DNA of 64,000 nt, from assembly GCA_022841915.1 (NCBI GenBank), contig JALHQN010000002.1, positions 338,724-402,723 on the forward strand, written 5' to 3'. The notes beneath the pieces were generated by a model. That model had not been told where the DNA came from. It did no database searches and saw only the letters and a list, made by a program, of their open reading frames with translations. Shown here piece after piece: positions 15,817 through 38,707 of the stretch. This stretch comes from Burkholderiales bacterium (GTDB lineage Bacteria > Pseudomonadota > Gammaproteobacteria > Burkholderiales > WYBJ01). A program made the translations under genes and the position numbers. How positions within the stretch are numbered: position 1 is the stretch's first letter; every line of letters starts with the position of its first letter.

Positions 15817-15842
15817 TGCCTGTGCTCCGTCGACCACGACCG

Positions 15843-22918: not shown

Positions 22919-23710
22919 TCAGTCCGGCGCGGCAATTCGTGCGTAGAGATCCGTCCCGTTCAGCCAGTGCTCGTGGTGGCTTTCGTCGCGCACGTTCCAC
23001 GGGTCTGCCGAGAACGCGATATCGGAGGTCTGCGTCAACAGCCAACGGTAGAACCTCGCGACGGTCGCCGGGGCGATGAGCTGGCCCGCATCGCGCAATC
23101 GCCGGTAGTCTTCGGCATCCGGGTACAGCCCCGGATCGGCGGCGATCTGAGCGGCGATCATCGGCGTATCGACAGGGCTCGGCACCGCCGAGCCGACGGC
23201 GATGCCGCGCGGCGCAAGCTCGATCTTCAGGCACTGCTGCAGCATGTGACTCGCTGCTTGGGAGACGCAGTACGCCGTGGCGGACTGCCTGGGGCGCGTC
23301 GCCGAGTTCGAGCCGACGAAGAGCACTCGCGATCCTGGCTGCAGCCAGGGCAGCAGATCGAGCGTGAGGAACAGGCGCGCGTCGACATTGGTATCGAGTA
23401 TGCGCCGCCAAGTGGCGACGGTTATGCTCCCAAGCGGCTCGATGGCATGCATGCCCGCGGCGTGAACGAGGAAGCGCACCCTGTCCGCGGAGCGCAGTGC
23501 GCTGCAGATCCGACTGCGCCCGCTGGTCGTCGAAACATCTGCGGCAACCGGCTCGATCGTGCCCCCCGACATCGATGCAGTCGCAAGCAGCGGATCCAAC
23601 CGCCGACCGATGGCGATCACGCGCAAGGGCAGTTCAGCCAACGACCGGGCGACGGCTCGACCTAGGCCGGAGCCTGCGCCGGTAACGATCGCGATGTCGC
23701 AACGGCTCAT
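22919..23710 (-). CDS. atypical SDR-family oxidoreductase (YxxxQ instead of YxxxK)
   Basis: This is the C-terminal 263 aa of the 411-aa track ORF. ATG 23710 overlaps the LysR stop (ATGA). TGAGSGLG cofactor motif. The catalytic region reads SATAYCVSQAAS (Y147...Q151, codon CAA verified on the minus strand). Confidence 0.75.
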   Translation of the reverse strand: MSRCDIAIVTGAGSGLGRAVARSLAELPLRVIAIGRRLDPLLATASMSGGTIEPVAADVSTTSGRSRICSALRSADRVRFLVHAAGMHAIEPLGSITVATWRRILDTNVDARLFLTLDLLPWLQPGSRVLFVGSNSATRPRQSATAYCVSQAASHMLQQCLKIELAPRGIAVGSAVPSPVDTPMIAAQIAADPGLYPDAEDYRRLRDAGQLIAPATVARFYRWLLTQTSDIAFSADPWNVRDESHHEHWLNGTDLYARIAAPD

Positions 23711-24612
23711 GTTCGCGGCCGCTCCGCGTGCCCGTTCGAACCCCCGAACGGCGCCGTATCCATCGCCAGCCGGATGAACGCATCGACGAGCGAACGATTG
23801 CGGCGAGCAGCGAGGCAGACGACGTAGGCTTCGATGACGATCGTCGCATCCGTGACCTTGAGCAGGCGGATGTTCTCGTGGGGGGCGAACTCCGTTTCGC
23901 CGATCGCGCCGAGCCCGATGCCGCGGGCCACGGCCTCGCGCACGGCTTCGCGGACGTTGATCTCCATGATGGGGCGTATGCGTACGCCCGCCTCGACGAG
24001 CGCCGATTCGAATGCGCGCCGAGTGGCCGAACCGGCGTCGCGCAGGATGAAGCCTTCGCCTTCCAGATCGGCAAGTCGCAGGGATCTGCGCTTGGCCAGG
24101 CGATGGGTATGCGGCACCATGATTCGGACCGGATGTCGATCGTAGAGCATGCAAAAATACCGTGAGTCCGTCACGGCATCGGCAACCACGCCGACATCGA
24201 AGTCGAACCCGGTCAGTCCGGCCATGATGGCATCGCGCGGTGCCACGCTCACCGAGAGTTCGACGCGCGGATAGCGATTGCGAAAAGCCTGGGTCAGCGC
24301 CATGACGTCATGCGGACCGACGGCGCCGAGGCGCAGCCGGCCGCCGTCGTTGCGCCCGATGCCGCGCAGATAGCTGATCGCCTCGGCCTCGTGGCCGTAG
24401 AGACCTTGGGTGATCGTGAAGAGCGATCGGCCCACGTCGGTCAGTTCGACCGTTCGCCCGCGCCGATAAAAGAGTTCGACCTTGAAATAGTCTTCGAGCG
24501 TCTTGATGTGCGCCGAAATCGTCGGCTGACCGACGTTGAGAGCCTTCGCCGCGTGCGTGAAGCTGCTTTGCGAGGCAACCATGTGGAAGGCCTTGAGCCA
24601 CTTTTCGTACAT
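23707..24612 (-). CDS. LysR-family transcriptional regulator (PhnR-like by position)
   Basis: N-terminal wHTH FTHAAKALNVGQPTISAHIKTLEDYF. About 300 aa, divergent from the phnA-like gene. Confidence 0.92.
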   Translation of the reverse strand: MYEKWLKAFHMVASQSSFTHAAKALNVGQPTISAHIKTLEDYFKVELFYRRGRTVELTDVGRSLFTITQGLYGHEAEAISYLRGIGRNDGGRLRLGAVGPHDVMALTQAFRNRYPRVELSVSVAPRDAIMAGLTGFDFDVGVVADAVTDSRYFCMLYDRHPVRIMVPHTHRLAKRRSLRLADLEGEGFILRDAGSATRRAFESALVEAGVRIRPIMEINVREAVREAVARGIGLGAIGETEFAPHENIRLLKVTDATIVIEAYVVCLAARRNRSLVDAFIRLAMDTAPFGGSNGHAERPRT

Positions 24613-24641
24613 CGATCAAATCAATGGAAGATGAAGAATTT

Positions 24642-24654
24642 TCGATTTTATCGA
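24642..24654. promoter_or_regulatory. candidate LysR-type T-N11-A box (TCGAT-N3-ATCGA)
   Basis: tcgattttatcga has 5-bp perfect inverted arms with T-N11-A spacing. It lies 30 bp upstream of the LysR start in the divergent intergenic region. Confidence 0.4.
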
Positions 24655-24670
24655 TGATAGGTGCGGTGCT

Positions 24671-24861
24671 AGTGTCCTGAGTCGGTGATTCGTTGACATT
24701 TTGCCGAACGGTATCGCTACTGCCTCAGCGACAAAAGTGTCGAAATCGTCGTCAGACGCGAAGGAAACCGCAGCCAGGTTGGACACCTGGCGAGGATTTC
24801 CGACAAAGTATGGCGCCGATTCTCGGCGCTTTTGGTCAGCGAATTTCTGACTCAGGACACT
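24671..24861. repeat. pair of perfect 13-bp inverted repeats (agtgtcctgagtc / gactcaggacact) 165 bp apart
   Basis: Read directly: 24671-24683 and 24849-24861 are exact reverse complements. Both lie in the LysR/phnA intergenic region. Confidence 0.9.
24812..24833 (+). terminator. intrinsic-terminator-like hairpin in the phnA leader
   Basis: GCGCCGA-ttc-TCGGCGC (7-bp GC-rich stem at 24813-19/24823-29) followed by TTTT (24830-33). It sits 75 nt upstream of the phnA start. The T-run is present only on the + strand. Confidence 0.35.
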
Positions 24862-24907
24862 GTGGTTGGGCAATTGTGGGCAAGCTACAAAACGAGGAGA
24901 CCACCGC

Positions 24908-26173
24908 GTGGCGACGAGCGACAAGCCGAAGGTCCGGGTGAACGGTACGGAGTATGGTTGGCCCCGCAAGCCGGTGGTGGTCGTGTGTATCGACGGCGGG
25001 GATCCGGCGTATTTCGATCACGGCCTCGCTCACGGTTACATCCCGAACGTCGCCCGCTTCATGAAGCAGGGCTTCAGCGCGGTCGCCGACGGCACCGTGC
25101 CGAGCGTCACGTGCACCAACAACATGTCGATCATCACGGGAGCGCCCGCTTCCGTGCACGGCATTTCGGGCAACTTCTACCTCGATCCTGCCACCGGCGA
25201 AGCGGTGGTGATGACCGGTCCGGAGCTGCTGCGCGGGGAAACCATCTTCGCCCAGTTCGCCCGCGCCGGTGCCCGAATTGCTGCGATCACCGCGAAGGAC
25301 AAACTGCGCCGCCAACTCGGCAAGGGGCTCGACGTCTCGCGCGGGAACATCTGTTTTTCGTCCGAGCACGTCGAGCGGTGCACGCGGGCCGAGCACGGCA
25401 TCGAGAATGCGCTCGAATTCGTCGGCATGCCCAAGCCCGACATGTATTCCATGGCGTTGTCGCTGTTCGTGCTCGAGGCGGGTGTGCGCATTCTCGAACG
25501 CGATCGGCCCGACATCCTGTATCTGTCATTGACCGACTGGGTGCAGCACAAGTATGCCCCGGGTGAGCCGGAGGCGATCGAGTTCTATCGCAAGATCGAC
25601 GACTGCTTCGGGCGGCTCGCCGATCTCGATGCCATCGTGGCGCTCACCGCCGATCACGGGATGAACGACAAGTCCAAACCGGACGGAACCCCCAATGTCG
25701 TCTGGCTGCAAGACATCCTGGACGCCGAGTTCGGCCAGGGCGACACCAAGGTGATATGTCCGATTACGGATCACTTCATCGCGCATCACGGTGCCCTGGG
25801 GGGATTCGTGCGTGTGTACTGCCGCGGCGGACGCGCGACGCCCGAAGCGATCATGCGGCTGATCGAACCCGTGCCCGGTCTGGCGGAGATCTACGACCGC
25901 CACACGGTCTGCAAGAAGTTCGACCTGCCGCTCGATCGCGAAGGCGATGTCGCCGTGATCTCGGCGCGCGACGTATGCGTCGGCGGTTCGGAGAAGGAGC
26001 ATGATCTGTCCGGTCTCGGGGGCCATCGGTTGCGCACCCATGGCGGCGTCACGGAAGCGCGCGTACCGTTCGTCGTGAGCGAGCCGGTGTCGGATGCCCA
26101 CAGGCTGAAAGCGACGAACGGGCCGCTCAACAGCTATCAGCTCTTCGACTACGCGATCAACGGGACGCGGTAG
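24908..26173 (+). CDS. phnA: phosphonoacetate hydrolase (alkaline-phosphatase superfamily)
   Basis: ORF 24866..26173 begins with TTG. GTG 24908, preceded by GAGGAG, is preferred. Blocks match recalled PhnA: VVVCIDGG, VPSVTCTNNMSIITGAPASVHGISGNF, TAKDKLR, YLSLTDWVQHKYAPGEPEA, LTADHGMN, HHGALG, HDLSGL, THGGVTEARVP. Confidence 0.85.
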   Translation: MATSDKPKVRVNGTEYGWPRKPVVVVCIDGGDPAYFDHGLAHGYIPNVARFMKQGFSAVADGTVPSVTCTNNMSIITGAPASVHGISGNFYLDPATGEAVVMTGPELLRGETIFAQFARAGARIAAITAKDKLRRQLGKGLDVSRGNICFSSEHVERCTRAEHGIENALEFVGMPKPDMYSMALSLFVLEAGVRILERDRPDILYLSLTDWVQHKYAPGEPEAIEFYRKIDDCFGRLADLDAIVALTADHGMNDKSKPDGTPNVVWLQDILDAEFGQGDTKVICPITDHFIAHHGALGGFVRVYCRGGRATPEAIMRLIEPVPGLAEIYDRHTVCKKFDLPLDREGDVAVISARDVCVGGSEKEHDLSGLGGHRLRTHGGVTEARVPFVVSEPVSDAHRLKATNGPLNSYQLFDYAINGTR

Positions 26174-26210
26174 CGCACTGCGTGACCCGACACGCCTTCA
26201 GGGAGGAGCG

Positions 26211-27305
26211 ATGAGCAGAACCGGCAAGGCGGTCGTCTACGATGCGCCCAATCAGCCCTTCGTCGTCAGGGAATATCCGCTCCGACCGACGCGAAAGGGC
26301 GAAGTGCTCGTGCGCATCAGCATGTCGACGATCTGTCGCTCCGACATCCATTCCTATCAGGGCCATCGGCCCAATCCCTGCCCGGGTGTTCTGGGGCACG
26401 AGATCATCGGCATCATCGAAGAGCTCGGGGACGGCGTAGAGCGCGACATGCGGGGCGACACGCTTGCGGTCGGTGATCGCATCACGTGGAGTGAGTATTT
26501 CATCCCGGGTGCCAACTACTACAGCGACGTGCTCGACATTCCGCAGAAGTCGCCGGGCGTGGACAAATACGGTCACATGGCCGTCGATACCGACCCGCAC
26601 TTCCACGGCGGCTTTGCCGAATACTGCTACATCCTGCCGCAGTCGTGGATACTCAAGCTGCCCGACGTGTTGAGCGACGAGGAAGCGACGCCGGTCAACT
26701 GCGGCGTCGCCACCATGATCGCGGTCACCGAAGCCGCAGCGATCGGCATGGGAGACACCGTCGTCGTGCAGGGACTCGGCCTGTTGGGTCTCTACGGTTG
26801 TGCGATAGCGCGCGCGCGCGGGGCGCGCCTCGTCATCGGGCTCGACACCGTGGCTTCACGCCGGGAATTGGGCAGGCGCTTCGGTGCAGACATCACGCTC
26901 GACCCCTCTGCGATGGATGAGGTCGAACTGGTCAAGCGGGTGCGCGAAGCTTGCCGGCCCGATGGCGCAGACGCCGTGATCGAGGTCTGCGGGTATCCCG
27001 AAGTCATTCCGGCAGGCCTGCAGTTCTTGCGCATCGGCGGGTGCTATACGCTCGGTGGGGTGGTCAACCCGAACTCGATCGTGCGCTTCGACGCCAACGT
27101 GCTCTTGCGCAAGCTCATCACCCTGCGGGGTGTGCACAACTACCACCCGCGTCATCTCATTCAGGCCCTCGACTTCGTCGTTGCCAATCGGGAGCGATTT
27201 CCGTTTCGCGATCTCGTCGACGGCAAGTACGGGCTGAACGAGGTCGGCCAGGCGATGCACGATGCGGCTGAACGCAAAGTGTTGCGAGCGGCAATCGTGC
27301 CCTGA
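26211..27305 (+). CDS. zinc-dependent MDR alcohol dehydrogenase (phosphonate-cluster-associated type)
   Basis: GGGAGGAG ribosome-binding site. Catalytic Zn ligands are Cys42 (ICRSD) and His63-Glu64 (GHE). VVVQGLGLLG Rossmann motif. No 4-Cys structural-zinc loop is visible. Confidence 0.8.
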   Translation: MSRTGKAVVYDAPNQPFVVREYPLRPTRKGEVLVRISMSTICRSDIHSYQGHRPNPCPGVLGHEIIGIIEELGDGVERDMRGDTLAVGDRITWSEYFIPGANYYSDVLDIPQKSPGVDKYGHMAVDTDPHFHGGFAEYCYILPQSWILKLPDVLSDEEATPVNCGVATMIAVTEAAAIGMGDTVVVQGLGLLGLYGCAIARARGARLVIGLDTVASRRELGRRFGADITLDPSAMDEVELVKRVREACRPDGADAVIEVCGYPEVIPAGLQFLRIGGCYTLGGVVNPNSIVRFDANVLLRKLITLRGVHNYHPRHLIQALDFVVANRERFPFRDLVDGKYGLNEVGQAMHDAAERKVLRAAIVP

Positions 27306-27307
27306 GG

Positions 27308-28804
27308 ATGACGATCGCGGAGCAGCCAATGAGCGCGAAAGAACGAAGTATCGTGTCCGAGCCCGACATCGGCTACTCGCCGCGCGGCCTTTACATCGGC
27401 GGGCGTTGGGAGGCGGCAGCCGACGGGCGCACGTTCGCAAGCATCAATCCGTCGACCGGCCGCAAACTCGGTGACGTGCCGTATGCGGCCGCCGCGGATG
27501 TCGATCGTGCGGTGCAGGCTGCAAAAATGGCGTTTCGCGACTGGAGTCGCGTTGGCGTCAAGGAGCGTGCGCGATGTCTGGAACTGCTGGCGAAGCGCAT
27601 TCGCGAAAACCGCAATGAACTCGGCCTGATGGATGCGCTCGACGCCGGCAATGCCGTCGTCGGGATGCGCGCCGACATGGACTGGACGGCCGACAGCCTC
27701 GAGTACTTCGCCGGACTCATCACCGAGATCAAGGGCGAAACGAGTTCGCAAGGGCCGCGACATCTCAACCTCACGCTGCGCCAGCCCTATGGCGTGGTCG
27801 GCAAGATCAATCCGTTCAATCATCCGTTCCGCTTTTGCGCGGAGAAAGCGGCTGCGCCGCTCGCGGCAGGCAATTGTCTGGTGATCAAGGGCTCGGAGCA
27901 GGCGCCCTTGTCGAGCCTGAAGCTCGGGGAACTCTGCGATGGTGTTTTTCCGCCCGGCGTGGTGAATATCGTCACCGGGGATGCCGTGGCGGGCGAAGCG
28001 ATCGTGCGGCACCCGGACGTGCCGCGCATCGGGCTCGTCGGTTCGGTGGATGCGGGCCGACGCGTCGCCATGGCTGCTGCCGAGCAGCTCAAGCGCGTGA
28101 GCCTCGAACTGGGCGGCAAGAATCCGATCGTCATCTTTCCGGATGCCGATCCGAAGAAGGCCGCCGCTGCGGCCCTCAAGGGCATGAACATGAACCGGCA
28201 GGGCCAGTCGTGCAGCTCGACCAGCCGGGTGTTCGTGCATGCTTCCCTGCACAAGGCCGTGCTCGACGAGATCGTCCGACTCGCCCGTGCGTTGCCGGTC
28301 GGTTTCCCCTGGATCGAAAGCAACGAGCTCGGACCGATCGTGTCCGAAAAGCAGTTCCAGCGTGTGATGGGCTACATCGAAGCGGGCAAGCAGGAGGGCG
28401 CCGAACTCGTTACCGGAGGCGCAAGGCCTACGGCGCCGGCGCTTGCAGGCGGCTACTTCATCCAGCCGACGGTGTTCGACGGCGTCCGCGACGCCATGCG
28501 CATCGCGCGCGAGGAAATCTTCGGGCCTGTCGTGGCCGTCATGACGTGGACGGACGTCGACGACGTGTTCTCGCGCGCCAATGCCCTTTCGTACGGTCTG
28601 ACCGCGGCCATCGTGACCAACGATCTGGCGCAGGCGATGGAGGCAGCGCACCGACTCGACGCAGGCTACGTCTGGATCAACGGCAATGGTCGTTACCTCG
28701 GTGCGCCCTATGGTGGTTGGAAGTCGAGCGGTCTCGGTGTCGAAGAGACCTTCGATGAGCTTCTGAGCTACACCCAAATCAAGAACGTTCACATGCGCTG
28801 GTAA
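27308..28804 (+). CDS. NAD(P)-dependent aldehyde dehydrogenase (phosphonoacetaldehyde dehydrogenase PhnY-like by context)
   Basis: ELGGKNP (catalytic Glu) and QGQSCSSTSRVFV (catalytic Cys). It starts 2 nt after the ADH stop. The alternative start at 27329 (MSAKER...) is not excluded. Confidence 0.8.
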   Translation: MTIAEQPMSAKERSIVSEPDIGYSPRGLYIGGRWEAAADGRTFASINPSTGRKLGDVPYAAAADVDRAVQAAKMAFRDWSRVGVKERARCLELLAKRIRENRNELGLMDALDAGNAVVGMRADMDWTADSLEYFAGLITEIKGETSSQGPRHLNLTLRQPYGVVGKINPFNHPFRFCAEKAAAPLAAGNCLVIKGSEQAPLSSLKLGELCDGVFPPGVVNIVTGDAVAGEAIVRHPDVPRIGLVGSVDAGRRVAMAAAEQLKRVSLELGGKNPIVIFPDADPKKAAAAALKGMNMNRQGQSCSSTSRVFVHASLHKAVLDEIVRLARALPVGFPWIESNELGPIVSEKQFQRVMGYIEAGKQEGAELVTGGARPTAPALAGGYFIQPTVFDGVRDAMRIAREEIFGPVVAVMTWTDVDDVFSRANALSYGLTAAIVTNDLAQAMEAAHRLDAGYVWINGNGRYLGAPYGGWKSSGLGVEETFDELLSYTQIKNVHMRW

Positions 28805-28908
28805 CTTCGGCGCCGAGCAGGACGTCATCGGCTTGTAATACCCCTGTCCTACTATCGCGCGAATCTGAAGGGTTCTTCAGTGCGCTACAAGACCAGGAGA
28901 CAAGCAGC

Positions 28909-30486
28909 ATGAACATTCGAGCATGGCGTTCCCGCATCCTGCCTACCACGATCGCCACCTTGGCTTTGCTGGGGGGGCTGTTTCAGTCTGCTGCGGCAAG
29001 CGCGCAGGTGCGCGAGCTTAGAGTCGGTGTCGCTTCGCACGTGCGCGGCCTCGATGTGCAGGAAGAAACCGGCAACAACGCCGCCCAGATGCTCCATCAG
29101 ATCTTCGATACGCTGATCGAGCGCGACAACTTCGCTGCCCCCCTGAAGTTCGGGCCCGGACTCGCCACGAGTTGGCGTATGGTTTCGCCGACCACGATGG
29201 AGCTGACGCTGCGCGACGGCGTCGTGATGCACGACGGCACCACGCTGGACGCCGAGGACGTCAAGTTCTCGCTCGAACGCGTGATCGATCGCAAGGATCC
29301 GCGCTATCGCAGTGCCCACGGCCGGTTCTTCTACAACCTCAAGGGGGTCGATGTGGTCGATCGGCTTACCGTGCGAATCCATACGCACCGGCCGGATCCT
29401 CTGCTCGAGACACTCCTGTCGGCACGCAATGCCGGCATCACGTCGAAGGAGTATGTGCAGAAAATCGGTGCCGACAAGGCGGCGCTGTTGCCGGTCGGCT
29501 CGGGGCCGTACAAGGTCGACAGCCTGCGCCCGAACGAGGTGCTCGTGCTGAGCCGCCACGACAAGTTCTGGGGTCCGCGCCCGCCGTTCGAGCGAATCAC
29601 CTACACGCGCATTCCCGAAGTCGCTGCGCGCGTAACGGCGCTCGTCAATCGCGAGGTCGACTTCATCGTGAACGTGCCGCCCGACCAGGAAGGCGCGGTC
29701 AAACGGGTGAAGGGCTTCAAGCTGGTTGGTGCGCCCTTGCCGGTGTTTCACATCTGGGTGCTCAACATGAGTCATCCCGTCATGGCGAACCCGGAGTTTC
29801 GCAAGGCGCTCAATCTTGCCGTCGATCGCGAAGCGCTGGTGAAGGGCTTGTGGAACGGCAGAGGCCTCGCGCCCAAGGCGCATCAGTTCAAGGAGTACGG
29901 CGAGCCGCTCTTCATGCCGGATCTCAACCACTACCGCTACGATCCGAAGGCAGCGCAGGCGCTGTTGAAGAAGGTCGGCTACAAGAACGAACAGGTCACC
30001 ATCACCTTCTTTCCCGAGTACTACCTTTACGGCAACTACGCTGCCGTCGCCGTCGCCGACATGTGGAAGAAGCTCGGCATCAATGTGAAGATCCAGCAGA
30101 GCGAGCCTGCGTTCAGCAACGCCGACCATACCAAAGTCATGATCCAGCCTTGGTCGAATCCGCTCTACTATCCGGATCCGATGGGGGTCTTCGACACGCA
30201 CTGGTCAGCCGAGAGCTGGGTCACCAAGAAGGGATTGTGGAAGCCCGATCTGCCGGAATGGGCGAGCACCTATGACAAGGCCCGCTTCTCGACAGATTCG
30301 AACGAGCGTCGTGCCGCCTATCGCAAGCTGCTGGAAATGGGCCAGGAGCTGAGCGGTTGGATCGTGCTCTACCAGCCGTACGAATCGTTCGCCATGAACG
30401 AGAACATCGAGTGGCGCATTCCGACAGCCCAACGGCCGTACGAGCTTACGTTCCGCGCCGGTCAGATAAGCTTCAAAGCGAAGTAG
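28909..30486 (+). CDS. ABC transporter substrate-binding protein, family 5 (peptide/opine/nickel type)
   Basis: Sec signal MNIRAWRSRILPTTIATLALLGGLFQSAAASA/QV. 525 aa with DppA/OppA-like architecture. CAGGAGA ribosome-binding site. Confidence 0.85.
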   Translation: MNIRAWRSRILPTTIATLALLGGLFQSAAASAQVRELRVGVASHVRGLDVQEETGNNAAQMLHQIFDTLIERDNFAAPLKFGPGLATSWRMVSPTTMELTLRDGVVMHDGTTLDAEDVKFSLERVIDRKDPRYRSAHGRFFYNLKGVDVVDRLTVRIHTHRPDPLLETLLSARNAGITSKEYVQKIGADKAALLPVGSGPYKVDSLRPNEVLVLSRHDKFWGPRPPFERITYTRIPEVAARVTALVNREVDFIVNVPPDQEGAVKRVKGFKLVGAPLPVFHIWVLNMSHPVMANPEFRKALNLAVDREALVKGLWNGRGLAPKAHQFKEYGEPLFMPDLNHYRYDPKAAQALLKKVGYKNEQVTITFFPEYYLYGNYAAVAVADMWKKLGINVKIQQSEPAFSNADHTKVMIQPWSNPLYYPDPMGVFDTHWSAESWVTKKGLWKPDLPEWASTYDKARFSTDSNERRAAYRKLLEMGQELSGWIVLYQPYESFAMNENIEWRIPTAQRPYELTFRAGQISFKAK

Positions 30487-30519
30487 CTGCGGCGAACCGA
30501 GGAGGCGGTCCCGTCATCC

Positions 30520-31440
30520 ATGCTGCACTTCCTGCTCTGGCGACTCGGCCGCGCGGCGCTCACGATCGCCCTCGTTCTGGTAATCTGCTTTGTCGCCGTG
30601 CGCGGGACGGGCTCGCCCGTCGACATCCTGTACCCCGAGGATGGGACGCCCGAGCAGCGTGCCGAACTCGAAAAGCAATGGGGGCTCGATCGGAGCCTGC
30701 CGGAGCAGTTCGCGGTCTACGTCGCCAACCTCGCCCGAGGCGAGTTCGGTGTGAGCATCATCGAGCGGCGACCCGTGATCGACGTCTATGCAGAGAAGCT
30801 CGCGCCCACCCTGCAGCTCGCCGGTTGCGCCCTCGTGATCGGCATCGCGGTCGGCATCCCGCTCGGCGTATTGGCCGCACTGCGCCGAGGTCGCGCCACC
30901 GCTCGGCTTGCCATGGCACTGGCATTCACCGGCTACGCCGTGCCCCATTTCATCATCGCCATCGTGCTCATTCTCGTATTCGGCTATCACCTCAACTGGC
31001 TCCCGAGCACCGGGGCAGCGACGCCCGCGCACTACATCCTGCCCGCGATAACGTTGGCGTTGCCTCTCATCGCAGCGATCGCTCGCTACATGCGCAGCAC
31101 CATGCTCGATGTCATGAGTCAGGACTATGTCCGCACTGCGAGGGCGAAAGGGGTGCGTGAACCAAGAATCGTCGCTCTGCATGTGATCCGCAATGCACTG
31201 TTGCCCCTGATCACGGTCCTCGGGCTGGAAGTCGCGGGACTGATCAATGGGTCACTGATCGTCGAAACGGTGTTCTCTTGGCCGGGACTGGGCAAGGTGT
31301 TGACCGGTTCGGTCTCCCGGCGGGATTTCCCGGTGCTGCAGTTCGGCGTGATCGCATACTCGGCGGTCGTCGTGTTCATCAATCTTCTGGTGGACGTCCT
31401 CTATTCCGTGGCCGACCCGCGCGTGCGCGTCGAGGCATGA
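30520..31440 (+). CDS. ABC transporter permease (DppB/OppB-like)
   Basis: 306 aa with six hydrophobic segments. The EAA-type loop DYVRTARAKG is present. Confidence 0.88.
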   Translation: MLHFLLWRLGRAALTIALVLVICFVAVRGTGSPVDILYPEDGTPEQRAELEKQWGLDRSLPEQFAVYVANLARGEFGVSIIERRPVIDVYAEKLAPTLQLAGCALVIGIAVGIPLGVLAALRRGRATARLAMALAFTGYAVPHFIIAIVLILVFGYHLNWLPSTGAATPAHYILPAITLALPLIAAIARYMRSTMLDVMSQDYVRTARAKGVREPRIVALHVIRNALLPLITVLGLEVAGLINGSLIVETVFSWPGLGKVLTGSVSRRDFPVLQFGVIAYSAVVVFINLLVDVLYSVADPRVRVEA

Positions 31441-31450
31441 GGCACCATCC

Positions 31451-32368
31451 ATGACGACAGCTGCGGACCCCACGGTTTCCCGGATTCCGGCTCCCGCGCC
31501 CGCCGCACCGGAGTTCGCGCTGCGCCGTCGGCTGGCCTTTCGGCGCATGCCGATCAGCATCAAGATCTGTTCCCTGCTCGCACTGGCTTTCGTATTCACC
31601 GCCCTCTTTGCGCCGTGGCTGACGCCTCACGACCCGGACGCAACGCAGATCCTGGCCAAGCTCAAGCCGCCGGCCTGGATGGAAGGCGGCGAGGCGGCCC
31701 ATCTGTTCGGCACGGATCAGCTCGGCCGTGATCTGCTCTCGCGTTGCATCTACGGCGTGCGCGTAAGCGTGGGCCTCGCCCTGTTCGGTCTCATCGTGGG
31801 TTGCCTGATCGGAACGACCCTCGGTGTCGTGAGCGGGCTCCTCGGTGGTCATGTCGATCGCGCCATCATGATGCTGGTCGACGTATTCATCAGTGTGCCG
31901 AACCTGCTCATCGTGCTGGTCGGCATCGCCGCGTTCGGAACCGACATCGTCGTGCTCGTGGTGCTTATCGGCCTGGCGCGCTGGGAATCCTATGCGCGCA
32001 TCGTGCGCGGGCAGGTATTGCAGGTGCGCGAAATGCCCTTCATCGAAGCGAGCCGTGCGCTCGGGGGATCGCACGCGTGGATCGCGATGCGCCATGTGTT
32101 GCCGAACATCGCAGGCCCGTTGATCGTGTTGCTGACGCTCAACTTTCCATCGATCCTGCTGCTGGAGTCGTCGTTGTCCTTTCTCGGCATCGGGGTGCAG
32201 CCGCCGACGGCCTCGCTCGGCAGCATGGTCGGCGACGGACGGGATCATCTGATATTCGCTTGGTGGGTGGCCGTTGCGCCGGCCCTCGTGATCGTCGCCA
32301 TCACGTTCATCGTGCAGATGCTTGGCGACTGGTTGCGCGACGTACTGGACGTGCGCGTCGATGATTGA
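31451..32368 (+). CDS. ABC transporter permease (DppC/OppC-like)
   Basis: 305 aa. The FIEASRALG loop and GTDQLGRDLLSR N-terminal motif are typical of DppC. Confidence 0.88.
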   Translation: MTTAADPTVSRIPAPAPAAPEFALRRRLAFRRMPISIKICSLLALAFVFTALFAPWLTPHDPDATQILAKLKPPAWMEGGEAAHLFGTDQLGRDLLSRCIYGVRVSVGLALFGLIVGCLIGTTLGVVSGLLGGHVDRAIMMLVDVFISVPNLLIVLVGIAAFGTDIVVLVVLIGLARWESYARIVRGQVLQVREMPFIEASRALGGSHAWIAMRHVLPNIAGPLIVLLTLNFPSILLLESSLSFLGIGVQPPTASLGSMVGDGRDHLIFAWWVAVAPALVIVAITFIVQMLGDWLRDVLDVRVDD

Positions 32369-33422
32369 GACATCCGAAGAGCATCGTGGGCATGCGCCCT
32401 CTCGGGTGCTGGAAGTTTGCGACCTGCGCGTACATCTTGCGCACGAGGAGCGCGAGCTGGAGGCGGTTGCGGGGGTCAGCTTTCACGTCGATGCGGGCGA
32501 GACCCTGGCGCTGGTCGGCGAGTCGGGCGCCGGCAAGTCCGTGACGGCGCTGTCGATCATGCGGCTCGTGCGGGCGGGCGGCCATACCGCAGCGGTGCGT
32601 ACCAGCGGACACCTCCGCTTTCGGAATGAGGCTGGCGAAACCGCCGATCTGCTGACATTGGACGATGAAGCCATGCGCGCCGTGCGCGGCCGCTCCATCG
32701 CCATGATCTTCCAGGAGCCGATGACTTCCCTCAATCCGGTGTTGCGGGTCGGCGACCAGATCGCCGAAGGCATTGTCGCTCACGATCGGATCGGCTGGCG
32801 CGCTGCGTCGGTGCGGGCCCTGGAGATGCTCGAGCTGGTGGGTATTCCCGATCCGCGCGCTCGGCAGCGAGCTTTTCCGCACGAGCTCTCCGGAGGGATG
32901 CGCCAACGAGTGATGATCGCCATCGCGCTTGCGTGTCGTCCCCGACTGCTCATCGCCGACGAACCCACCACCGCGCTCGATGTCACGATTCAGGGCCAGG
33001 TGCTGGACCTGATACGCAGACTCCAGTCGGAACTGCGCATGGCGGTGCTTTTCATCACCCACGATCTGGGTGTCGTTGCCCAGATGGCCGATCGAGTCGC
33101 GGTGATGTATGCCGGTCGCATCGTCGAGGAAGCTCCGGTCGAGGCGTTCTTCGAGAGCCCGGCGCATCCCTATTCGGCCGGGCTGCTGCGCTCCATGCCC
33201 AATCCGGATCCGCGGCGGCCGGCACAGGCGCTGCAGCCGATTCGGGGCACGGTCCCGAGTCTGGATCAGGTGCCGCCCGGTTGTGCTTTCCAGCCTCGGT
33301 GCGATCGCGCCGCGGGCGAGGATTGCACGCAAAGGCGCCCGGTGCTGGAGCCATTCGGCGAGCGACGTGCCGTGCGATGCTGGCGCCCTCACCCGGTGTT
33401 CACGACAGGAACCGGCAAGTGA
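32361..33422 (+). CDS. ABC transporter ATP-binding protein (DppD-like)
   Basis: ORF 32322..33422. ATG 32361 overlaps the permease stop by 8 nt. Walker A GESGAGKS, signature LSGGMRQR, and a C-terminal oligopeptide-type extension. Confidence 0.9.
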
Positions 33423-34414
33423 GTTCAGACCCGCTCATCCGTGCCGAGTCGCTGACTACGGCCTTTACGGTCGGCCGGTCGTTCATGAAGCGCGCGGTTC
33501 TGCGTGCGGTCGACGAGGTCAGCCTGGATATTCGCGCGAACGAAGTGCTCGCGTTGGTGGGCGAATCCGGGTCCGGGAAGACGACGTTCGGGCGCTCGCT
33601 CCTGCGTCTGGTCGAACCCACGGCGGGCGCCATCTGGTATGACGGTCGCGACATTACCCACTTGCCGGGCGACGAGATGCGTGCGCTTCGTCGGCAGATG
33701 CAGATCGTGTTCCAGGATCCGTTCGCCTCCCTGGATCCGCGCATGAGCGTCGGCGAAATCGTCGGCGAGGGTCTGCGCATCCACGGCATGGGCGCAGCAT
33801 CGGTACGGGCGCAGCGCGTGGCGAACGTGCTCGAGCAGGTGGGGCTGGGTGCAGACCACGCGCGCCGCTATCCGCACGCCCTCTCGGGCGGTCAGCGGCA
33901 GCGCGTCGGCATCGCCCGGGCCCTCGCGGTGGAGCCCCGCTTCATCGTCGCCGACGAGCCCGTGTCCTCGCTCGATGTTTCCATTCAGGCGCAGATTGTC
34001 CAACTCCTCGTCGAGTTGCGCCGGCGCCTCGGGCTGACGATGCTCTTCATCACGCACAACCTGGGTGTGGTTCGTATCCTCAGCGACCGGGTGGCCGTGA
34101 TGTACCTGGGTCGGCTGGTGGAGATTGCGCCCACTGCCACGCTCTTCGAACGACCGGCGCATCCCTACACGCGCAGCTTGCTTGCGAGCATACCGTTGCC
34201 CGATCCCAAGGCGCGGCGACCGCTTGCCGCGCTCCGCGGAGAACTGCCGAGCGGGCTCAACCCGCCGAGCGGCTGTGTGTTCCGTACCCGGTGTCCGCAC
34301 GCGATCGAAGCGTGCGCGAGCGCCCGCCCTGAACTGCGAGCACTCGGGCCCGGACATCAGGCGGCATGCTCACGACCTGAGATCACCGCGCTTCCCTTCC
34401 AAGGCTTTGCATAG
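33419..34414 (+). CDS. ABC transporter ATP-binding protein (DppF-like)
   Basis: In the frame of track ORF 32933..34414. GTG 33419 (residue 163) overlaps the DppD-like stop (GTGA). Walker A GESGSGKTT and signature LSGGQRQR. Confidence 0.88.
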   Translation: MSSDPLIRAESLTTAFTVGRSFMKRAVLRAVDEVSLDIRANEVLALVGESGSGKTTFGRSLLRLVEPTAGAIWYDGRDITHLPGDEMRALRRQMQIVFQDPFASLDPRMSVGEIVGEGLRIHGMGAASVRAQRVANVLEQVGLGADHARRYPHALSGGQRQRVGIARALAVEPRFIVADEPVSSLDVSIQAQIVQLLVELRRRLGLTMLFITHNLGVVRILSDRVAVMYLGRLVEIAPTATLFERPAHPYTRSLLASIPLPDPKARRPLAALRGELPSGLNPPSGCVFRTRCPHAIEACASARPELRALGPGHQAACSRPEITALPFQGFA

Positions 34415-34427
34415 GAACGAACGAATC

Positions 34428-35960
34428 ATGGCAAGACCGGAAATGAACGTCCTGCTCATCGTCGTCGATCAATGGCGCGGCGACACCTTGGGTGCTTTGG
34501 GGCACCCCTGCGTACGAACGCCGAACATCGATCGGCTCGCCGCCGAAGGCGTGACCTTCACCCGGCACTACGCGCAAAGCTCGCCGTGCGGCCCGAGCCG
34601 GGCATCGATGCTCACGGGCCAGTACTTGATGAATCATCGGGTCATTACCAACGACACGCCGACCGCCGCGCATCGCAAGACGATGGCGCGGTTCATGCGC
34701 GAGGCCGGTTACGAACCCGCGCTCATCGGCTATACGACGACGGTACCCGATCCGCGCGTGGCGCATTCGAACGATCCGCGCTTCACGACCAACACCATCG
34801 CCGAAGGCTGGAACATCGTTCGCGACTTCGAGGGCGAGCGCGAGCACTACATGGCCTACCTGTCCGGACTTGGCTACGACATCCCGAAGAAGTATGTCGA
34901 CATCTTCCAGCCCCCGCACGGAGCTGACGAATCGCTGAGGCTCGCCCCGTCTCCGATCAAGAAGGAGCACAGCGAGACGGCCTGGTCGATCGATGCCGCT
35001 CTCGATTACATCCGCATCCGCGCGGACGAACCGTGGTGTCTGCATCTGGGCACGTACCGGCCGCATCCGCCCTTCATGGCGCCGACGCCCTACGATGCGA
35101 TGTACGATCCGGCCGCGATGCCGGCTCCGCTGCGCGCACCGAACCTCGCGGCAGAGAAGCGCGTGCATCCGTTGACGCACCTGCTGCTGGAACACGTCAA
35201 AGCATCGAATGCCGTGCGGCATTGGTCCGGACTCGCCTCGGCGATCGATCTCGAAGGCATCGCAAAGATCAGGGCTGCCTACTATGCGTTGTGCACCGAG
35301 GTGGACGATCATCTCGGGCGCGTGTTCGAGTTGCTGCGCGCGACCGGCCAGGACGAACGCACGCTCGTCATCCTCACGTCCGATCACGGCGAGCAGCTCG
35401 GCGATCACTTCATGGTGTCGAAGCGGGGCTACTTTCCGCAGTCGTATCACATTCCGCTGATCGTGCGCGATCCGCGCGCGGCGGCGAACGGCACGCGTGG
35501 GCGCAAGTTCGCTCACTTTACCGAGAACGTCGATGTGCTGCCGACGATCCTCGACTGGCTGGGAGAGCCCTTGCCGCATCAGTTCGACGGCCATACGCTC
35601 ATGCCCTTGCTCAGAGGGGAAGTGCCCGGACGCTGGCGCAAAGCGGCACGGTACGAGTACGACTTTCGCGACATGGCGAGCCGCAAGGCTGCTGCCGCAC
35701 TCGGCATCGATCCCGACGCGACGTCGCTGGCCTGCGTGCTCGACGACGACTACGCCTACATCCATTTCGCCGAATTGCCGCCGCTGCTATTCGATTTGAA
35801 GGCCGATCCGCACTGGCTCAACAATGTGGCTGAAGAAGCGCGCTATCAACCGGTCGCCCTGAAGTACGCGCGTCAAATGCTCGATTGGCGGCTCGCTTAT
35901 GCCGACCGAACACTGACCGGGCTCGCGATCAGCAGCGACGGCCTCAGGGGGCATGCGTGA
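34428..35960 (+). CDS. sulfatase-fold hydrolase, phosphonate monoester hydrolase/phosphodiesterase (PMH)-like
   Basis: ORF 34125..35960. Start is ATG 34428 (residue 102), with no signal peptide. LLIVVDQWRGD (Asp-Gln metal site), SSPCGPSRAS (CxPxR formylglycine motif, Cys54), TSDHGE, and the tail FDLKADPHW...WRLAYADRTLT. Confidence 0.75.
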   Translation: MARPEMNVLLIVVDQWRGDTLGALGHPCVRTPNIDRLAAEGVTFTRHYAQSSPCGPSRASMLTGQYLMNHRVITNDTPTAAHRKTMARFMREAGYEPALIGYTTTVPDPRVAHSNDPRFTTNTIAEGWNIVRDFEGEREHYMAYLSGLGYDIPKKYVDIFQPPHGADESLRLAPSPIKKEHSETAWSIDAALDYIRIRADEPWCLHLGTYRPHPPFMAPTPYDAMYDPAAMPAPLRAPNLAAEKRVHPLTHLLLEHVKASNAVRHWSGLASAIDLEGIAKIRAAYYALCTEVDDHLGRVFELLRATGQDERTLVILTSDHGEQLGDHFMVSKRGYFPQSYHIPLIVRDPRAAANGTRGRKFAHFTENVDVLPTILDWLGEPLPHQFDGHTLMPLLRGEVPGRWRKAARYEYDFRDMASRKAAAALGIDPDATSLACVLDDDYAYIHFAELPPLLFDLKADPHWLNNVAEEARYQPVALKYARQMLDWRLAYADRTLTGLAISSDGLRGHA

Positions 35961-37591
35961 ACGCGCCGTCGTTGCACCCGGTTGCGCGCCGGCTCACGAG
36001 CGTCCTCGGCGGCATGGCCCTCGCGGTCGCCATGTTTTCTGTGCCGCAGGCAGAAGCGCAACTCCTCGCTTCGGGGGATGTCGGCCCCGACGGGGCGGTG
36101 GTTTGGGTGCGGCCCGAGCGCAGCGGTACTTATCAGCTTGAAGTCGCCCTGGATGCGGCGTTCTCCAAGGTGCAGCAGCGCGTGCCGATCGCTGTCGGCG
36201 ATTCGACCGGCTTGACCGGGCAGACCACGCTCAATGGCCTGATGGCCTCCACGCGCTATCACTATCGCTTGCGCGACGAGAAGGGGCCCTTGCCGGCCCG
36301 GGGTGTCTTCACGACAGCGCCGAGGGATGGCGTGCGGGCACCGCTCACGCTCCTCTTCGGCGCGGATCTCGGCGGGCAGGGTTACGGCCGCCTGCGGGCC
36401 GATGTCGGGTTGCCGGTGGACGGCTGGCCGATCTTCAAGCCCATGCTGGCCGAGAACGCGGACCTGTTTCTCGCGCTGGGTGACATGATCTACTCGGATC
36501 GACCGATCGGCACCAATGCGCCCGATCGGGAGTATCCCAAGGGCAACGACTACCAGATTCCGAAACCAGGGCCGGGGTTCGTTGCAGGGGTGGACGACTT
36601 CAGGCGCGATTGGCACTACCATCGCAGCGACCATCGTCTCGATGCCTTCTTGCGCGCTACGCCCATGATCGCGACGTGGGACGATCACGAGATCGTCAAC
36701 GACAGTGGCGGGCCGGAGCTGGTGAAGGGCCCCAACGCGCAGGAGCTGGCACGCGATGCCCGACTGAGCCAGGGCGATCCGTCGCGGCCGCGAGGGGAGT
36801 TCATGCCCTGGAGCACGACGAAGGATCCTCGCGGCCGCCGCAAGTCCGTGTTCTTCAATCCCGAATTGTTTCGGGCGGGACGGCAGGCGATGTTCGAGTA
36901 CAACCCCATTCGAGCCGAACCGGATCCCTCGGGGGCCTTCGAGCGTCGGCTCTACCGCAGCGTGCGCTGGGGCGCACATGCCGAAGTCATCATGCTCGAC
37001 ACGCGCTCGTACCGTGATCCCCGTTATCGAGTCGATAGCGATCAGTCGCCCAAGACCATGCTCGGCGAAGCGCAGAAGCGATGGCTGCTCGAGCGCCTGG
37101 AGAAATCGGACGCCACGTGGAAGATCGTGGTCAGCAGCGTGCCGCTGTCGGTCGAAGGCGGCAACGAGAAGGATCCGCAGGGGCACGGCTACCGCGATGC
37201 ATGGGCAAACGTGACCCCGGACAATCCCTACGGCTACGGGCGCGAACTGAAGCAGATCGTCTCGCACATCCTGACGAAAGGAATCCGCAACGTCGTCTTC
37301 CTCACCGGCGACAAGCACTACTCGAACGTCTTCGGCTACGACCCGGATGCCGATGGCGTCATCGACTTTCACGAGATCAACGTCGGCCCGTTGCGCGCCG
37401 GTCGCGGTTCGGGGAAGCTGCCGTTCGATACCAGTCTGAATCCAACCCGGCTGTACACCGATGCGGGCAGTGCGGCATTCGTCTATGGGTGGGTCCGCAT
37501 CGATCCGGCATCGGGCCGCTTCGAAGCGGAGCTGCGCGACGTGGACGGAGCGACGCGTTCGGGCTCTCGACTGGTGTTGAATCCGAGGTAG
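35957..37591 (+). CDS. phoD: PhoD-family alkaline phosphatase/phosphodiesterase, exported
   Basis: ORF 35885..37591. GTG 35957 overlaps the upstream stop (GTGA). The N-terminus VARRLTSVLGGMALAVAMFSVPQAEA/Q looks like a Tat/Sec signal. TWDDHEIVND (PhoD WDDHE motif) and FLTGDKHYS are present. The start is uncertain (alternative Met at GGMALAV). Confidence 0.8.
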   Translation: MNAPSLHPVARRLTSVLGGMALAVAMFSVPQAEAQLLASGDVGPDGAVVWVRPERSGTYQLEVALDAAFSKVQQRVPIAVGDSTGLTGQTTLNGLMASTRYHYRLRDEKGPLPARGVFTTAPRDGVRAPLTLLFGADLGGQGYGRLRADVGLPVDGWPIFKPMLAENADLFLALGDMIYSDRPIGTNAPDREYPKGNDYQIPKPGPGFVAGVDDFRRDWHYHRSDHRLDAFLRATPMIATWDDHEIVNDSGGPELVKGPNAQELARDARLSQGDPSRPRGEFMPWSTTKDPRGRRKSVFFNPELFRAGRQAMFEYNPIRAEPDPSGAFERRLYRSVRWGAHAEVIMLDTRSYRDPRYRVDSDQSPKTMLGEAQKRWLLERLEKSDATWKIVVSSVPLSVEGGNEKDPQGHGYRDAWANVTPDNPYGYGRELKQIVSHILTKGIRNVVFLTGDKHYSNVFGYDPDADGVIDFHEINVGPLRAGRGSGKLPFDTSLNPTRLYTDAGSAAFVYGWVRIDPASGRFEAELRDVDGATRSGSRLVLNPR

Positions 37592-37621
37592 TGAATCGGG
37601 AGACGGCGTGGAGCGTGCTGC

Positions 37622-38059: not shown

Positions 38060-38142
38060 GCGTATCGTCTCCGCGTCTGACAGGTTACATTGCCGAGGCT
38101 AGTGCCCCGGCAGGGCAGATGCCCAATGGGCGTGAGCCGCGG

Positions 38143-38604: not shown

Positions 38605-38707
38605 GTGGAGAACCTTCCCTGAGGGCCCGATAGTAGCAGATGGCCATTGTCCCCAACCGGTAACGGCAGGGCAGGGCACTGGCTTGACCAGCTGCCGGGG
38701 ACCTGCG

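Follow-up and report, generated by a model that had tools for sequence, protein, structure and literature searches.

A putative LysR-controlled operon of a freshwater Burkholderiales bacterium that may take up and mineralize esterified 2-hydroxyethylphosphonate

A 64,000-nt stretch of DNA from a Burkholderiales bacterium whose source is described as freshwater (assembly GCA_022841915.1, contig JALHQN010000002.1, positions 338,724 to 402,723 of the forward strand; hereafter, the window) carries ten co-directional, closely packed genes at 24908-37591 that run divergently from a gene for a LysR-type regulator, as read from the open reading frame (ORF) map and the translations. They encode, in order, a phosphonoacetate hydrolase (PhnA), a zinc-dependent alcohol dehydrogenase (ADH), an aldehyde dehydrogenase (ALDH), a family-5 substrate-binding protein (SBP), two permeases and two ATPases of an ABC importer, a phosphonate monoester hydrolase (PMH), and a PhoD-like phosphoesterase. 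We propose, giving the idea about an even chance of being right, that these genes form a LysR-controlled composite operon that takes up and mineralizes esterified 2-hydroxyethylphosphonate (HEP), R-O-P(O)(O-)-CH2CH2OH, a pathway whose every step is inferred from sequence.

The pathway would start in the periplasm, where the secreted PhoD-like esterase probably trims phosph(on)oester material of larger size. The ligand captured next by the SBP, which resembles the agrocinopine receptor AccA and has its conserved phosphoryl-binding Asn/Tyr-Tyr/Ser residues, would be a small phosphonate monoester or phosphodiester, to be imported by the ABC transporter. In the cytoplasm, the formylglycine-dependent PMH would cut the P-O ester and yield free HEP, which the ADH, of the PbfG type, would oxidize to phosphonoacetaldehyde. 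The ALDH, which is betaine-aldehyde-dehydrogenase-like and would replace PhnY, would convert this product to phosphonoacetate, and carbon-phosphorus (C-P) hydrolysis by PhnA would finally release acetate and phosphate. The proposed ADH and ALDH steps draw on strong comparative evidence; those of PhoD, of the SBP and importer, and of the PMH draw on homology to enzymes characterized in vitro and on recurring linkage. A preceding sequence-only reading had already arranged the genes as uptake, de-esterification, two oxidations, and C-P hydrolysis and had suggested HEP esters as a possible substrate. The comparative evidence favors that substrate, and the coupling of importer and esterases to the C-P route stays conditional, the unit also occurring alone (in locus L091 and on plasmid pRL9; L-numbers denote the related loci that we compared).

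PhnA and the two dehydrogenases

C-P hydrolysis by the predicted PhnA is the step with the strongest homology support. The protein scores 535 bits on the hidden Markov model (HMM) TIGR02335, above the equivalog cut-off of 407.55, which bears out its earlier assignment, and it matches S. meliloti PhnA (3szy) with 409 bits and the Pseudomonas fluorescens 23F enzyme with 357 bits. Its threonine nucleophile (in PSVTCTNN) aligns with that of 3szy and with the mutated position of the T68A entry 3t02, and the metal-binding motifs D..DG, TDxxxH, ADHG, and HGG are all kept.

HEP is degraded by oxidation to phosphonoacetaldehyde, which is then processed either by PhnX or by PhnY and PhnA (Piazza et al., Protein Sci, 15 Sept 2026, PMC13576164). 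According to the same work, the oxidation is carried out by PhpC-type enzymes (pf00465) or by a new pf00107 zinc-dependent ADH named PbfG, assayed from Cellulosimicrobium protaetiae, in clusters that often lack phnW. PbfG clusters were reported from Actinomycetota, Planctomycetota, Bacteroidota, Gemmatimonadota, and Verrucomicrobiota, and Pseudomonadota were reported with PhpC (PMC13576164). PbfG has a kcat/KM of 8.9e4 M-1 s-1, a proposed catalytic Cys45/His66/Cys166 set, a Cys4 structural zinc site, and proposed HEP contacts at Ser47, Arg56, His124, and Asn298 (PMC13576164). The view that the present architecture was uncharacterized is consequently outdated for its 5′ half, since clusters that combine PbfG with PhnY-PhnA or with PhnX and lack phnW have been published (PMC13576164). 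The PhnA-ADH-ALDH trio, without PhnW, is an instance of this now-characterized HEP pathway, as a variant of it.

Among protein families, TIGR03366 ("phosphonate catabolism associated alcohol dehydrogenase") is by far the best match of the window ADH, with 285 bits compared to 109 for the next family, and the score lies beneath the cut-off of 328. Scores of 268-289 are found throughout the proteobacterial clade to which the protein belongs, with 341-401 in relatives of the Cys4 type and 283-306 in Cys-less clades. In a search of 1.8 billion representatives, this clade proved compact (at least 63% identity), followed by a drop to 33-42%. More than 2000 close homologues were found, nearly all in alpha- and betaproteobacterial metagenome bins. 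A genome scan returned 158 ADH relatives, and the locus counts given below refer to the best 80 of these 158, at species level. All 80 are metagenome-assembled genomes (MAGs), mainly of freshwater or soil Burkholderiales, the closest (96%) being from Lake Mendota.

Residues C42, S44, R53, H63, H122, and C164 of the window ADH are invariant in its clade, and their spacing equals that of the published PbfG residues. Most distant relatives keep C42, S44, R53, H63, E64, H122, and C164 together with a PQKC..KYGH motif. The lobe loop (residues 90-121) holds no cysteine in the window clade and four in most distant relatives. N296 matches PbfG Asn298 by numbering, in a column that is Glu in most relatives. 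The comparison with PbfG (WP_154797266) was made through its published residue numbering and a planctomycete bridge protein, and a search for the exact PbfG residue numbering among 150 distant representatives returned solely a Cys-less protein. In Planctomycetes bacterium K2D, an ADH gene (394 bits on TIGR03366) overlaps a true phnX (TIGR01422, 318 bits against 220), a pair that corresponds to the phnX-pbfG clusters, a type whose ADH has been assayed as an HEP dehydrogenase (PMC13576164). The window ADH aligns with the K2D protein over its full length (38% identity, E 7e-79). From these comparisons we place it in the PbfG lineage, as a divergent enzyme from which the structural zinc site has been lost. 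With the published PbfG clusters the locus shares the logic of an ADH that leads to phosphonoacetaldehyde, the ADH superfamily, TIGR03366 as best HMM, the catalytic Cys/His/Cys and the Ser/Arg/His residues, the lack of phnW, and the adjacency to phnA. It differs in that its ADH comes from a large alpha- and betaproteobacterial clade at 33-42% identity to the rest and lacks the Cys4 loop, in that its ALDH is not PhnY, and in its importer, PMH, and PhoD, a linkage that the text of PMC13576164 does not mention.

By family, the ALDH is not PhnY: the protein scores 230 bits on TIGR03250 (PhnY), whose cut-off is 636, and this model ranks 25th among ALDH families. The highest scores came from betaine-aldehyde dehydrogenase models (436-438 bits, under their cut-offs); the closest solved structures are likewise betaine-aldehyde dehydrogenases, and PhnY is absent from the top 60 PDB matches. 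For comparison, true PhnY proteins of the sister loci L021, L055, and L062 reach 836-863 bits on TIGR03250. Orthologues of the window-type ALDH (63-83% identity) come after PhnA-ADH in 28 loci. Across the 80 loci, the window type and canonical PhnY occur in 27 and 28, respectively, and both together in 1. Such mutual exclusion within the same clusters is what one would expect if one enzyme had replaced the other, non-orthologous one on a common substrate, phosphonoacetaldehyde. Four of the 28 loci with the window type also encode PhnW (L017, L027, L059, and L064), which again fits phosphonoacetaldehyde as substrate. By position, these data support the ALDH as a putative non-orthologous substitute that works like PhnY, not as a member of that family.

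Since PhnW marks the route from 2-aminoethylphosphonate (AEP), we considered whether the locus serves ordinary AEP catabolism, PhnW being supplied from another part of the genome and the ADH having an ancillary role, such as HEP salvage or the balancing of phosphonoacetaldehyde. PhnW stands beside PhnA-ADH in 26 of the 80 loci, four of them with the window-type ALDH, and our view of this genome is limited to 64 kb. Within these 64 kb, however, neither PhnW nor an AEP transporter is present, the window-type ALDH occurs without PhnW in 24 of its 28 loci, and ADH-bearing clusters without phnW are common and have been argued to be dedicated to HEP (PMC13576164). We therefore hold AEP catabolism to be very improbable. 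The absences themselves were checked in several ways. A tblastn search of the window with a betaproteobacterial PhnW, a PhnD, a canonical PhnY, and AEP-transporter proteins gave no match apart from a single ALDH hit, and E. coli PhnG, PhnH, PhnI, PhnJ, PhnM, PhnN, PhnP, and PhnD matched nothing in it save for cross-hits to the ABC ATPases. No DxDGT motif of PhnX was found in the window, the absence of PhnX and PhnZ resting on this motif scan and on reading of the flank translations, not on HMMs. With that limit for PhnX and PhnZ, the earlier statement that PhnW, PhnX, PhnY*/PhnZ, and C-P lyase are missing holds for the 64-kb window. The only TauD-like ORF of the window, at 718-1644 (+), offers its sole conceivable PhnY*-like fold; it was considered as a candidate PhnY* and rejected, since its best family is taurine dioxygenase (207 bits, cut-off 313) and since it stands at a distance of 23 kb with no HD partner.

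A further alternative gives one or both dehydrogenases a different substrate, such as another hydroxy-phosphonate or the alcohol released by the PMH, phosphonoacetate itself arriving as an ester that the PMH cleaves. Such a role would suit the 33-42% identity between the ADH clade and the relatives that pass TIGR03366, the loss of the structural zinc, the resemblance of the ALDH to betaine-aldehyde dehydrogenase, and the presence of an additional short-chain dehydrogenase/reductase (SDR) that belongs to the locus. It is opposed by the fact that the ADH tracks PhnA (73 of 80 loci), with the PMH seen in just 5 of those (five further importer-bearing loci end before the PMH position). In addition, the residues proposed to bind the phosphonate of HEP are invariant in the ADH clade, and clusters that are alike in all other respects have either the ALDH or true PhnY. 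We regard this alternative as hardly likely and retain HEP and phosphonoacetaldehyde as the proposed substrates of the two dehydrogenases.

The importer, its binding protein, and the two esterases

The closest solved relative of the SBP is AccA, the agrocinopine receptor (228 bits), the next protein other than AccA reaching 125. The natural ligands of AccA are phosphate diesters (agrocinopines, sugar phosphodiesters), whose phosphate it contacts through Asn54, Tyr375, Tyr376, and Ser419 (PMC4526662). These four residues align with N56, Y371, Y372, and S416 of the window SBP, and the same four are kept in SBPs encoded beside PehA in Rhizobium and Pseudoroseomonas. The pyranose anchors Asn284, Glu434, Trp423, and Thr430 of AccA, on the other hand, align with V279, H431, Y420, and V427 and are not kept. 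Because these anchors are replaced, the SBP is not an agrocinopine receptor, and the ester group R is not an agrocinopine-type sugar. We propose the SBP as a candidate receptor for a phosphonate monoester or phosphodiester.

The Agrobacterium acc operon (AccA-E importer, AccF phosphodiesterase, and AccG phosphatase) offers the nearest functional parallel. Both systems have a family-5 SBP of the phosphodiester kind with an ABC importer of the same family, and both follow the logic of a cytoplasmic esterase that cleaves the imported diester before a further enzyme frees phosphate. The window esterase, however, is a sulfatase-fold formylglycine enzyme and not of the AccF type, and the last step is C-P hydrolysis instead of a phosphatase reaction. 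The likeness is one in the way of working, not in family membership.

PMHs have long been used as models of catalytic promiscuity. The window PMH aligns over residues 5-506 with the enzymes of R. leguminosarum (RlPMH; 2vqr, 464 bits) and B. caryophylli (BcPMH; 2w8s, 463 bits), to which it is about 45% identical by tblastn, and its CGPSR (CxPxR) motif falls on the formylglycine position. On the PehA model NF045661 it scores 628 bits, under the equivalog cut-off of 900, with the next family at 235. No signal peptide was found in the PMH. It thus shares with RlPMH (pRL90232) and BcPMH the full-length similarity, the CxPxR motif, and the cytoplasmic location, and with pRL9 also the adjoining AccA-like ABC importer. 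It differs in being embedded in a C-P hydrolysis operon, the characterized enzymes having no phosphonate-catabolic neighbors within 9 kb. The best in vitro substrates of characterized PMHs are phosphonate monoesters and phosphodiesters (PMC5649143). In the searchable literature we found no natural PMH substrate, and nothing relevant on PehA phosphonate clusters or on TIGR03366/HpnZ beyond PMC13576164 and PMC5649143.

The context of RlPMH itself can be read from locus L089 (R. johnstonii 3841 pRL9, 8995-16207), where the RlPMH gene (pRL90232) heads a string that goes on with the gene for an AccA-like SBP and then with those for two ATPases and two permeases. The string is preceded by genes for sugar ABC transporters and for sugar-phosphate isomerases, a context that we did not find discussed in the literature searched. 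On both pRL9 and the P. cervicalis plasmid, PehA is directly followed by a homologous SBP (28-32% identity, with the same N/YY/WSN residues) and ABC genes.

Enzymes of the PhoD family are general phosphatases and diesterases. The PhoD-like protein of the window scores 197 bits on Pfam PhoD (gathering threshold 27) and 49 on PhoD_N (gathering threshold 30). On the NCBIfam PhoD equivalog model it stays far below the cut-off (94 against 1000). It shares with the PhoD type of secreted phosphatase both domains and an N-terminal export signal, and its relationship to B. subtilis PhoD is remote (2yeq, 80 bits). Its hydrophobic N-terminus is predicted to be a signal peptide that ends at AEA/QLLASGD (the slash marking cleavage), a cleavage context shared by six orthologues, and the mature N-terminus is kept in the orthologues of L010, L017, L037, L057, and L095. 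An RR pair is not conserved among the orthologues, and export may be Sec dependent. The SBP likewise has a predicted signal peptide, ending AxA/Q. Signal peptides on the PhoD-like protein and the SBP and none on the PMH fit the proposed compartments. HEP esters are a documented natural pool (PMC5649143; PMC13576164), and Sosa et al. (2017, PMC5649143) earlier postulated, without genetic evidence, that enzymes of both kinds, PhoD and PMH, detach phosphonates from their polysaccharide esters. The 2026 paper speculates that HEP is mostly polymer bound and names no releasing enzyme (PMC13576164).

Recurrence of the modules in other genomes

In the neighborhood survey that the sequence-only reading had called for, PhnA and the ADH are adjacent in 73 of the 80 loci (32 of 32 with full flanks), and the importer-PMH unit recurs. 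PhnW occurs in 26 of the 80 ADH-anchored loci and a PhnCDE-type importer in 56. Three layouts were distinguished: a regulator followed by PhnA-ADH-ALDH of the window type; GntR followed by PhnA-ADH-PhnCDE and a distant ALDH (canonical PhnY), with a divergent AEP transporter and PhnW; and a distant ALDH (canonical PhnY) with GntR, divergent from PhnCDE-PhnA-ADH-PhnW. The position directly after the ALDH is taken by the AccA-like importer in the window and in L044, and by a PhnCDE-type importer in, for example, L017, L027, L030, and L048. A PMH follows the AccA-like importer in all six loci that reach far enough, the window counted, and PhoD orthologues in the ADH-anchored set were found in the window, L010, L017, L037, and L057. 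Loci L037 and L057 contain all ten genes and, in addition, a PhnCDE importer. In the alphaproteobacterial L010, the same genes are reordered, with a divergent LysR gene followed by PhnA, ADH, ALDH, PhoD, PMH, and SBP. Some labels in this collection invite caution: L046 (a MAG labelled Streptomycetaceae) and L065-L073 (labelled Spirochaetia MAGs) carry PhnA-ADH-ALDH 55-82% identical to the betaproteobacterial genes, a mismatch that may stem from mis-binning or horizontal transfer.

Searches that took the PMH as their anchor, without reference to the ADH, led once more to phosphonate genes. L095 carries the C-terminus of a PhnY (92% identity to the L021 PhnY) before importer, PMH, and PhoD. L092 combines a PhnZ-type HD oxygenase (TIGR03276, 194 bits), a phn_lysR-like regulator, a true PhnD (311 against 261), and PhnC/E with the importer, the PMH, and a lysophospholipase-like hydrolase. 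A contig of GCA_041443025.1 has an HD-ALDH-PMH-SDR string, the SDR right after the PMH, beside PhnCDDEE and PhnG of C-P lyase. Other loci present the unit in a different setting, with importer and PMH alone in L091, importer-PMH-HAD phosphatase in L093, and metallophosphatase-PMH-importer in L097. In L096, no ABC importer genes adjoin the PMH; the other strand holds, at a distance of 3.5-6 kb, an SBP_bac_5 gene and an SDR. A metagenome scan with the PMH gave 5 loci, mostly near-identical. The importer-PMH pair is, consequently, a mobile unit that is often, and not always, found beside phosphonate-cleaving genes of four kinds (PhnA, PhnY, PhnZ, and C-P lyase).

Two of these loci deserve separate mention. 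In L092 (18-12862), PMH and importer are strung together with the PhnZ-type oxygenase, PhnCDE, and the hydrolase, which is lysophospholipase L2-like, a context that hints at phosphonolipid head-group esters as a further substrate class. In L093, we considered the HAD protein as a PhnX and a GMC oxidoreductase with an ALDH as a third HEP route, and rejected both. The HAD protein is phosphoglycolate-phosphatase-like and the ALDH a methylmalonate-semialdehyde dehydrogenase; moreover, the ALDH and the GMC oxidoreductase both lie beyond a divergent regulator, which also speaks against the HEP-route reading.

The occurrence of the pair in such varied settings raises the question of whether the window merely unites two unrelated phosphorus-scavenging modules on one transcript, the trio degrading free HEP or phosphonoacetate brought in by a transporter whose genes lie elsewhere and the importer, PMH, and PhoD-like protein scavenging ordinary phosphate diesters, such as those of sugars or glycerol or fragments of nucleic or teichoic acids, with phosphatases completing the release. 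The solitary importer-PMH of L091 and the phosphatase neighbors in L093 and L097 agree with this arrangement, as do the sugar-utilization genes that surround the pair on pRL9 and on a plasmid of P. cervicalis. So do the properties of the proteins: characterized PMHs also hydrolyze phosphodiesters (PMC5649143), the ligands of AccA are of that class, and PhoD enzymes are of general specificity. This arrangement would, however, leave the C-P route of the window without an importer, while 56 of the 80 sister loci have one of the PhnCDE type. The module also stands with four C-P systems and is reordered in L010, so that chance juxtaposition is unlikely, and the regulator is a LysR protein of the phosphonate kind with no obvious Pho box (by eye), which points to substrate-specific induction. 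We judge two unrelated modules to be unlikely, although clearly the most serious of the alternatives that we weighed. A broader proposal is that importer and PMH, with or without PhoD, form a dedicated front end for natural phosphonate monoesters that feeds whatever C-P system the host has (PhnA, PhnY-PhnA, PhnZ-type, or C-P lyase); we advance it tentatively, as somewhat short of an even bet.

Several observations weigh against uptake and mineralization of an HEP ester by the window operon. The AccA-like importer is present in just 10 of the 80 ADH-anchored loci, and importer and PMH occur with no phosphonate genes nearby in L091, L093, L097, R. leguminosarum pRL9, and P. cervicalis. The SBP has lost the sugar-anchoring residues of AccA, the ADH scores below the TIGR03366 cut-off and is without the structural zinc site described for PbfG, and the ALDH carries no family-level signal for a phosphonate substrate. 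If the periplasmic PhoD-like protein freed HEP itself, another importer would be required, and none is encoded in the operon. Finally, co-transcription of the ten genes is read solely from their spacing.

Gene layout, regulation, and biological meaning

The ORF map and translations returned all eleven previously noted genes, the LysR gene and the divergent run of ten, at unchanged positions (Table 1). Consecutive junctions within the run measure 37, 2, 104, 33, 10, -8, -4, 13, and -4 nt; on reading the sequence, the overlaps reported earlier proved real, namely one of 8 nt at 32361/32368 and two of the GTGA type at 33419 and 35957. AGGAG-type Shine-Dalgarno-like sites precede phnA and the genes for the ADH, the SBP, and the first permease. 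For the ALDH, ATG 27329 is more likely the start than ATG 27308, which lies 2 nt past the ADH stop codon; a GGAG motif stands 7 nt before ATG 27329, and the same start is used in an independent annotation of an identical contig, giving a predicted protein of 491 residues. Terminator-like hairpins between 23000 and 39000 were not above chance (8 found against 9.8 expected from shuffled sequence), the 104-nt gap between the ALDH and SBP genes (28805-28908) contains no hairpin with a T-run, a sigma-70 scan of 23000-39000 gave no promoter-like site, and an Rfam search of the whole window found no RNA family. A convergent thioesterase gene at 37622-38059 (-) bounds the operon at its 3′ end. The same gene set recurs in other genomes at 55-85% protein identity, and the arrangement is therefore beyond chance.

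Table 1. Features of the putative HEP ester operon and its regulatory region (positions in the window)
Feature	Position	Strand	Basis
SDR, atypical	22922-23710	-	Pfam adh_short, 107 bits; ATGA overlap with the LysR stop codon
LysR-type regulator	23707-24612	-	Pfam HTH_1 and LysR_substrate; TIGR03339
Candidate operator block	24611-24663		Common to the LysR-phnA spacers of six other loci
phnA, phosphonoacetate hydrolase	24908-26173	+	TIGR02335, above cut-off
Zn-ADH of the PbfG/TIGR03366 lineage, proposed HEP dehydrogenase	26211-27305	+	TIGR03366
ALDH, betaine-aldehyde-dehydrogenase-like, proposed phosphonoacetaldehyde dehydrogenase	27308 (likelier 27329)-28804	+	Betaine-aldehyde dehydrogenase models
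Family-5 SBP, AccA-like	28909-30486	+	Pfam SBP_bac_5; AccA
ABC permeases, two	30520-31440, 31451-32368	+	Pfam BPD_transp_1; best NCBIfam models of Opp/Nik/Gsi type, below cut-off
ABC ATPases, two	32361-33422, 33419-34414	+	Pfam ABC_tran and oligo_HPY; 8- and 4-nt overlaps
PMH, PehA-like, sulfatase-fold formylglycine type	34428-35960	+	NF045661
PhoD-like secreted phosphoesterase	35957-37591	+	Pfam PhoD and PhoD_N

The best NCBIfam match of the LysR protein is TIGR03339 (phn_lysR) with 270 bits, under the subfamily cut-off of 341 and ahead of the next family at 145. Its orthologues (48-63% identity) are divergent from phnA in L010, L015, L030, L059, L064, and L067. A block that opens the LysR-phnA spacer, ATCGATCAAATCAAT ... 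TTTTCGATTTTATCGATGATAGG, is kept in the same six loci, which belong to alpha- and betaproteobacteria. In the window, it contains an imperfect dyad, ATCGATCAAATCAAT (24611-24625), a T-N11-A dyad, TCGATTTTATCGA (24642-24654), and GATGATAGG, and we infer that it is a putative LysR-binding site. The phnA leader of the window (24664-24907) is about 180 nt longer than in orthologous loci of the LysR type, whose spacers measure about 100-150 nt. A hairpin in this leader (24812-24836; an 8-bp GC stem followed by UUUUGG) was considered as an element and dismissed, being neither significant against shuffles (z = -1.5) nor repeated. By analogy with PhnR of Pseudomonas fluorescens 23F, on which the comparison of substrate induction is based (PMC10574752), the regulator probably responds to a pathway intermediate, as PhnR does to phosphonoacetate. 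The phnR-phnA locus of that strain and phnWAY of S. meliloti have in common with the window a PhnA orthologue and a divergent LysR-type regulator, and control by substrate rather than by Pho only is plausible. The window differs from both in lacking PhnW, in the lineage of its ALDH, and in the added ADH, AccA-like importer, PMH, PhoD, and SDR.

The unit of ten genes and a LysR gene, as first delimited, was correct and too small, the SDR gene coupled to the regulator having been overlooked. The SDR start codon shares an ATGA overlap with the LysR stop codon. SDR orthologues (50-58% identity) adjoin the regulator only in L032, L044, L046, and L047, where the regulator is GntR, and all four of these loci have the AccA-like importer. 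The catalytic YxxxK of the family reads YxxxQ here, with Y147 and Q151 invariant in all five orthologues. The SDR is probably part of the system.

Around the operon, the flanks (read by eye) carry genes for CoA-transferases, acyl-CoA enzymes, a glutamyl-tRNA reductase, and transporters. Upstream, at 16751-20717 (+), an MmgE/PrpD-like gene, a family III CoA-transferase gene, and a CitE/RipC-like lyase gene stand in a row and resemble an itaconate-degradation set; a second family III CoA-transferase gene lies downstream of the operon at 39781-40989 (+). By eye, an ORF at 46864-47682 (+) looks like a class D (OXA-type) beta-lactamase; its N-terminus is signal-like, and it contains the motif S-T-F-K (ASTFKVFNTLIALEEG). 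Genes for an ABC ATPase, an ABC-2 permease, a GldG-like protein, and a DUF4340-like protein follow at 47754-52543 (-) and appear, again by eye, unrelated to the operon.

The core HEP route, PhnA, the PMH and PhoD as enzymes, and AccA-type receptors are already known. Not found in the searchable literature were the linkage of an AccA-like importer, a PMH, and a PhoD-like protein to C-P hydrolysis, the proteobacterial ADH clade without the zinc site, the non-PhnY ALDH, and the coupled SDR. The earlier impression that this architecture had not been described accordingly survives for the 3′ half of the operon, its 5′ half being published.

In natural waters, a large pool of organic phosphorus consists of HEP and methylphosphonate esters on polysaccharides. 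For the detachment of such phosphonates, the operon and its relatives give a genetic link, in the form of a phosphodiester-type importer and two esterases wired to the HEP route. They also extend this route to a large and abundant proteobacterial clade of freshwater and soil, with proposed variants in which an ADH without the zinc site takes the role of PbfG and a second, non-PhnY lineage of phosphonoacetaldehyde dehydrogenase takes that of PhnY. For the PMHs, the locus offers a hypothesis of natural function. If the proposal is true, the window would encode, in one self-contained pathway, every step that leads from esterified HEP to acetate and phosphate, and the PMHs, together with a family of AccA-like binding proteins, would gain a physiological function.

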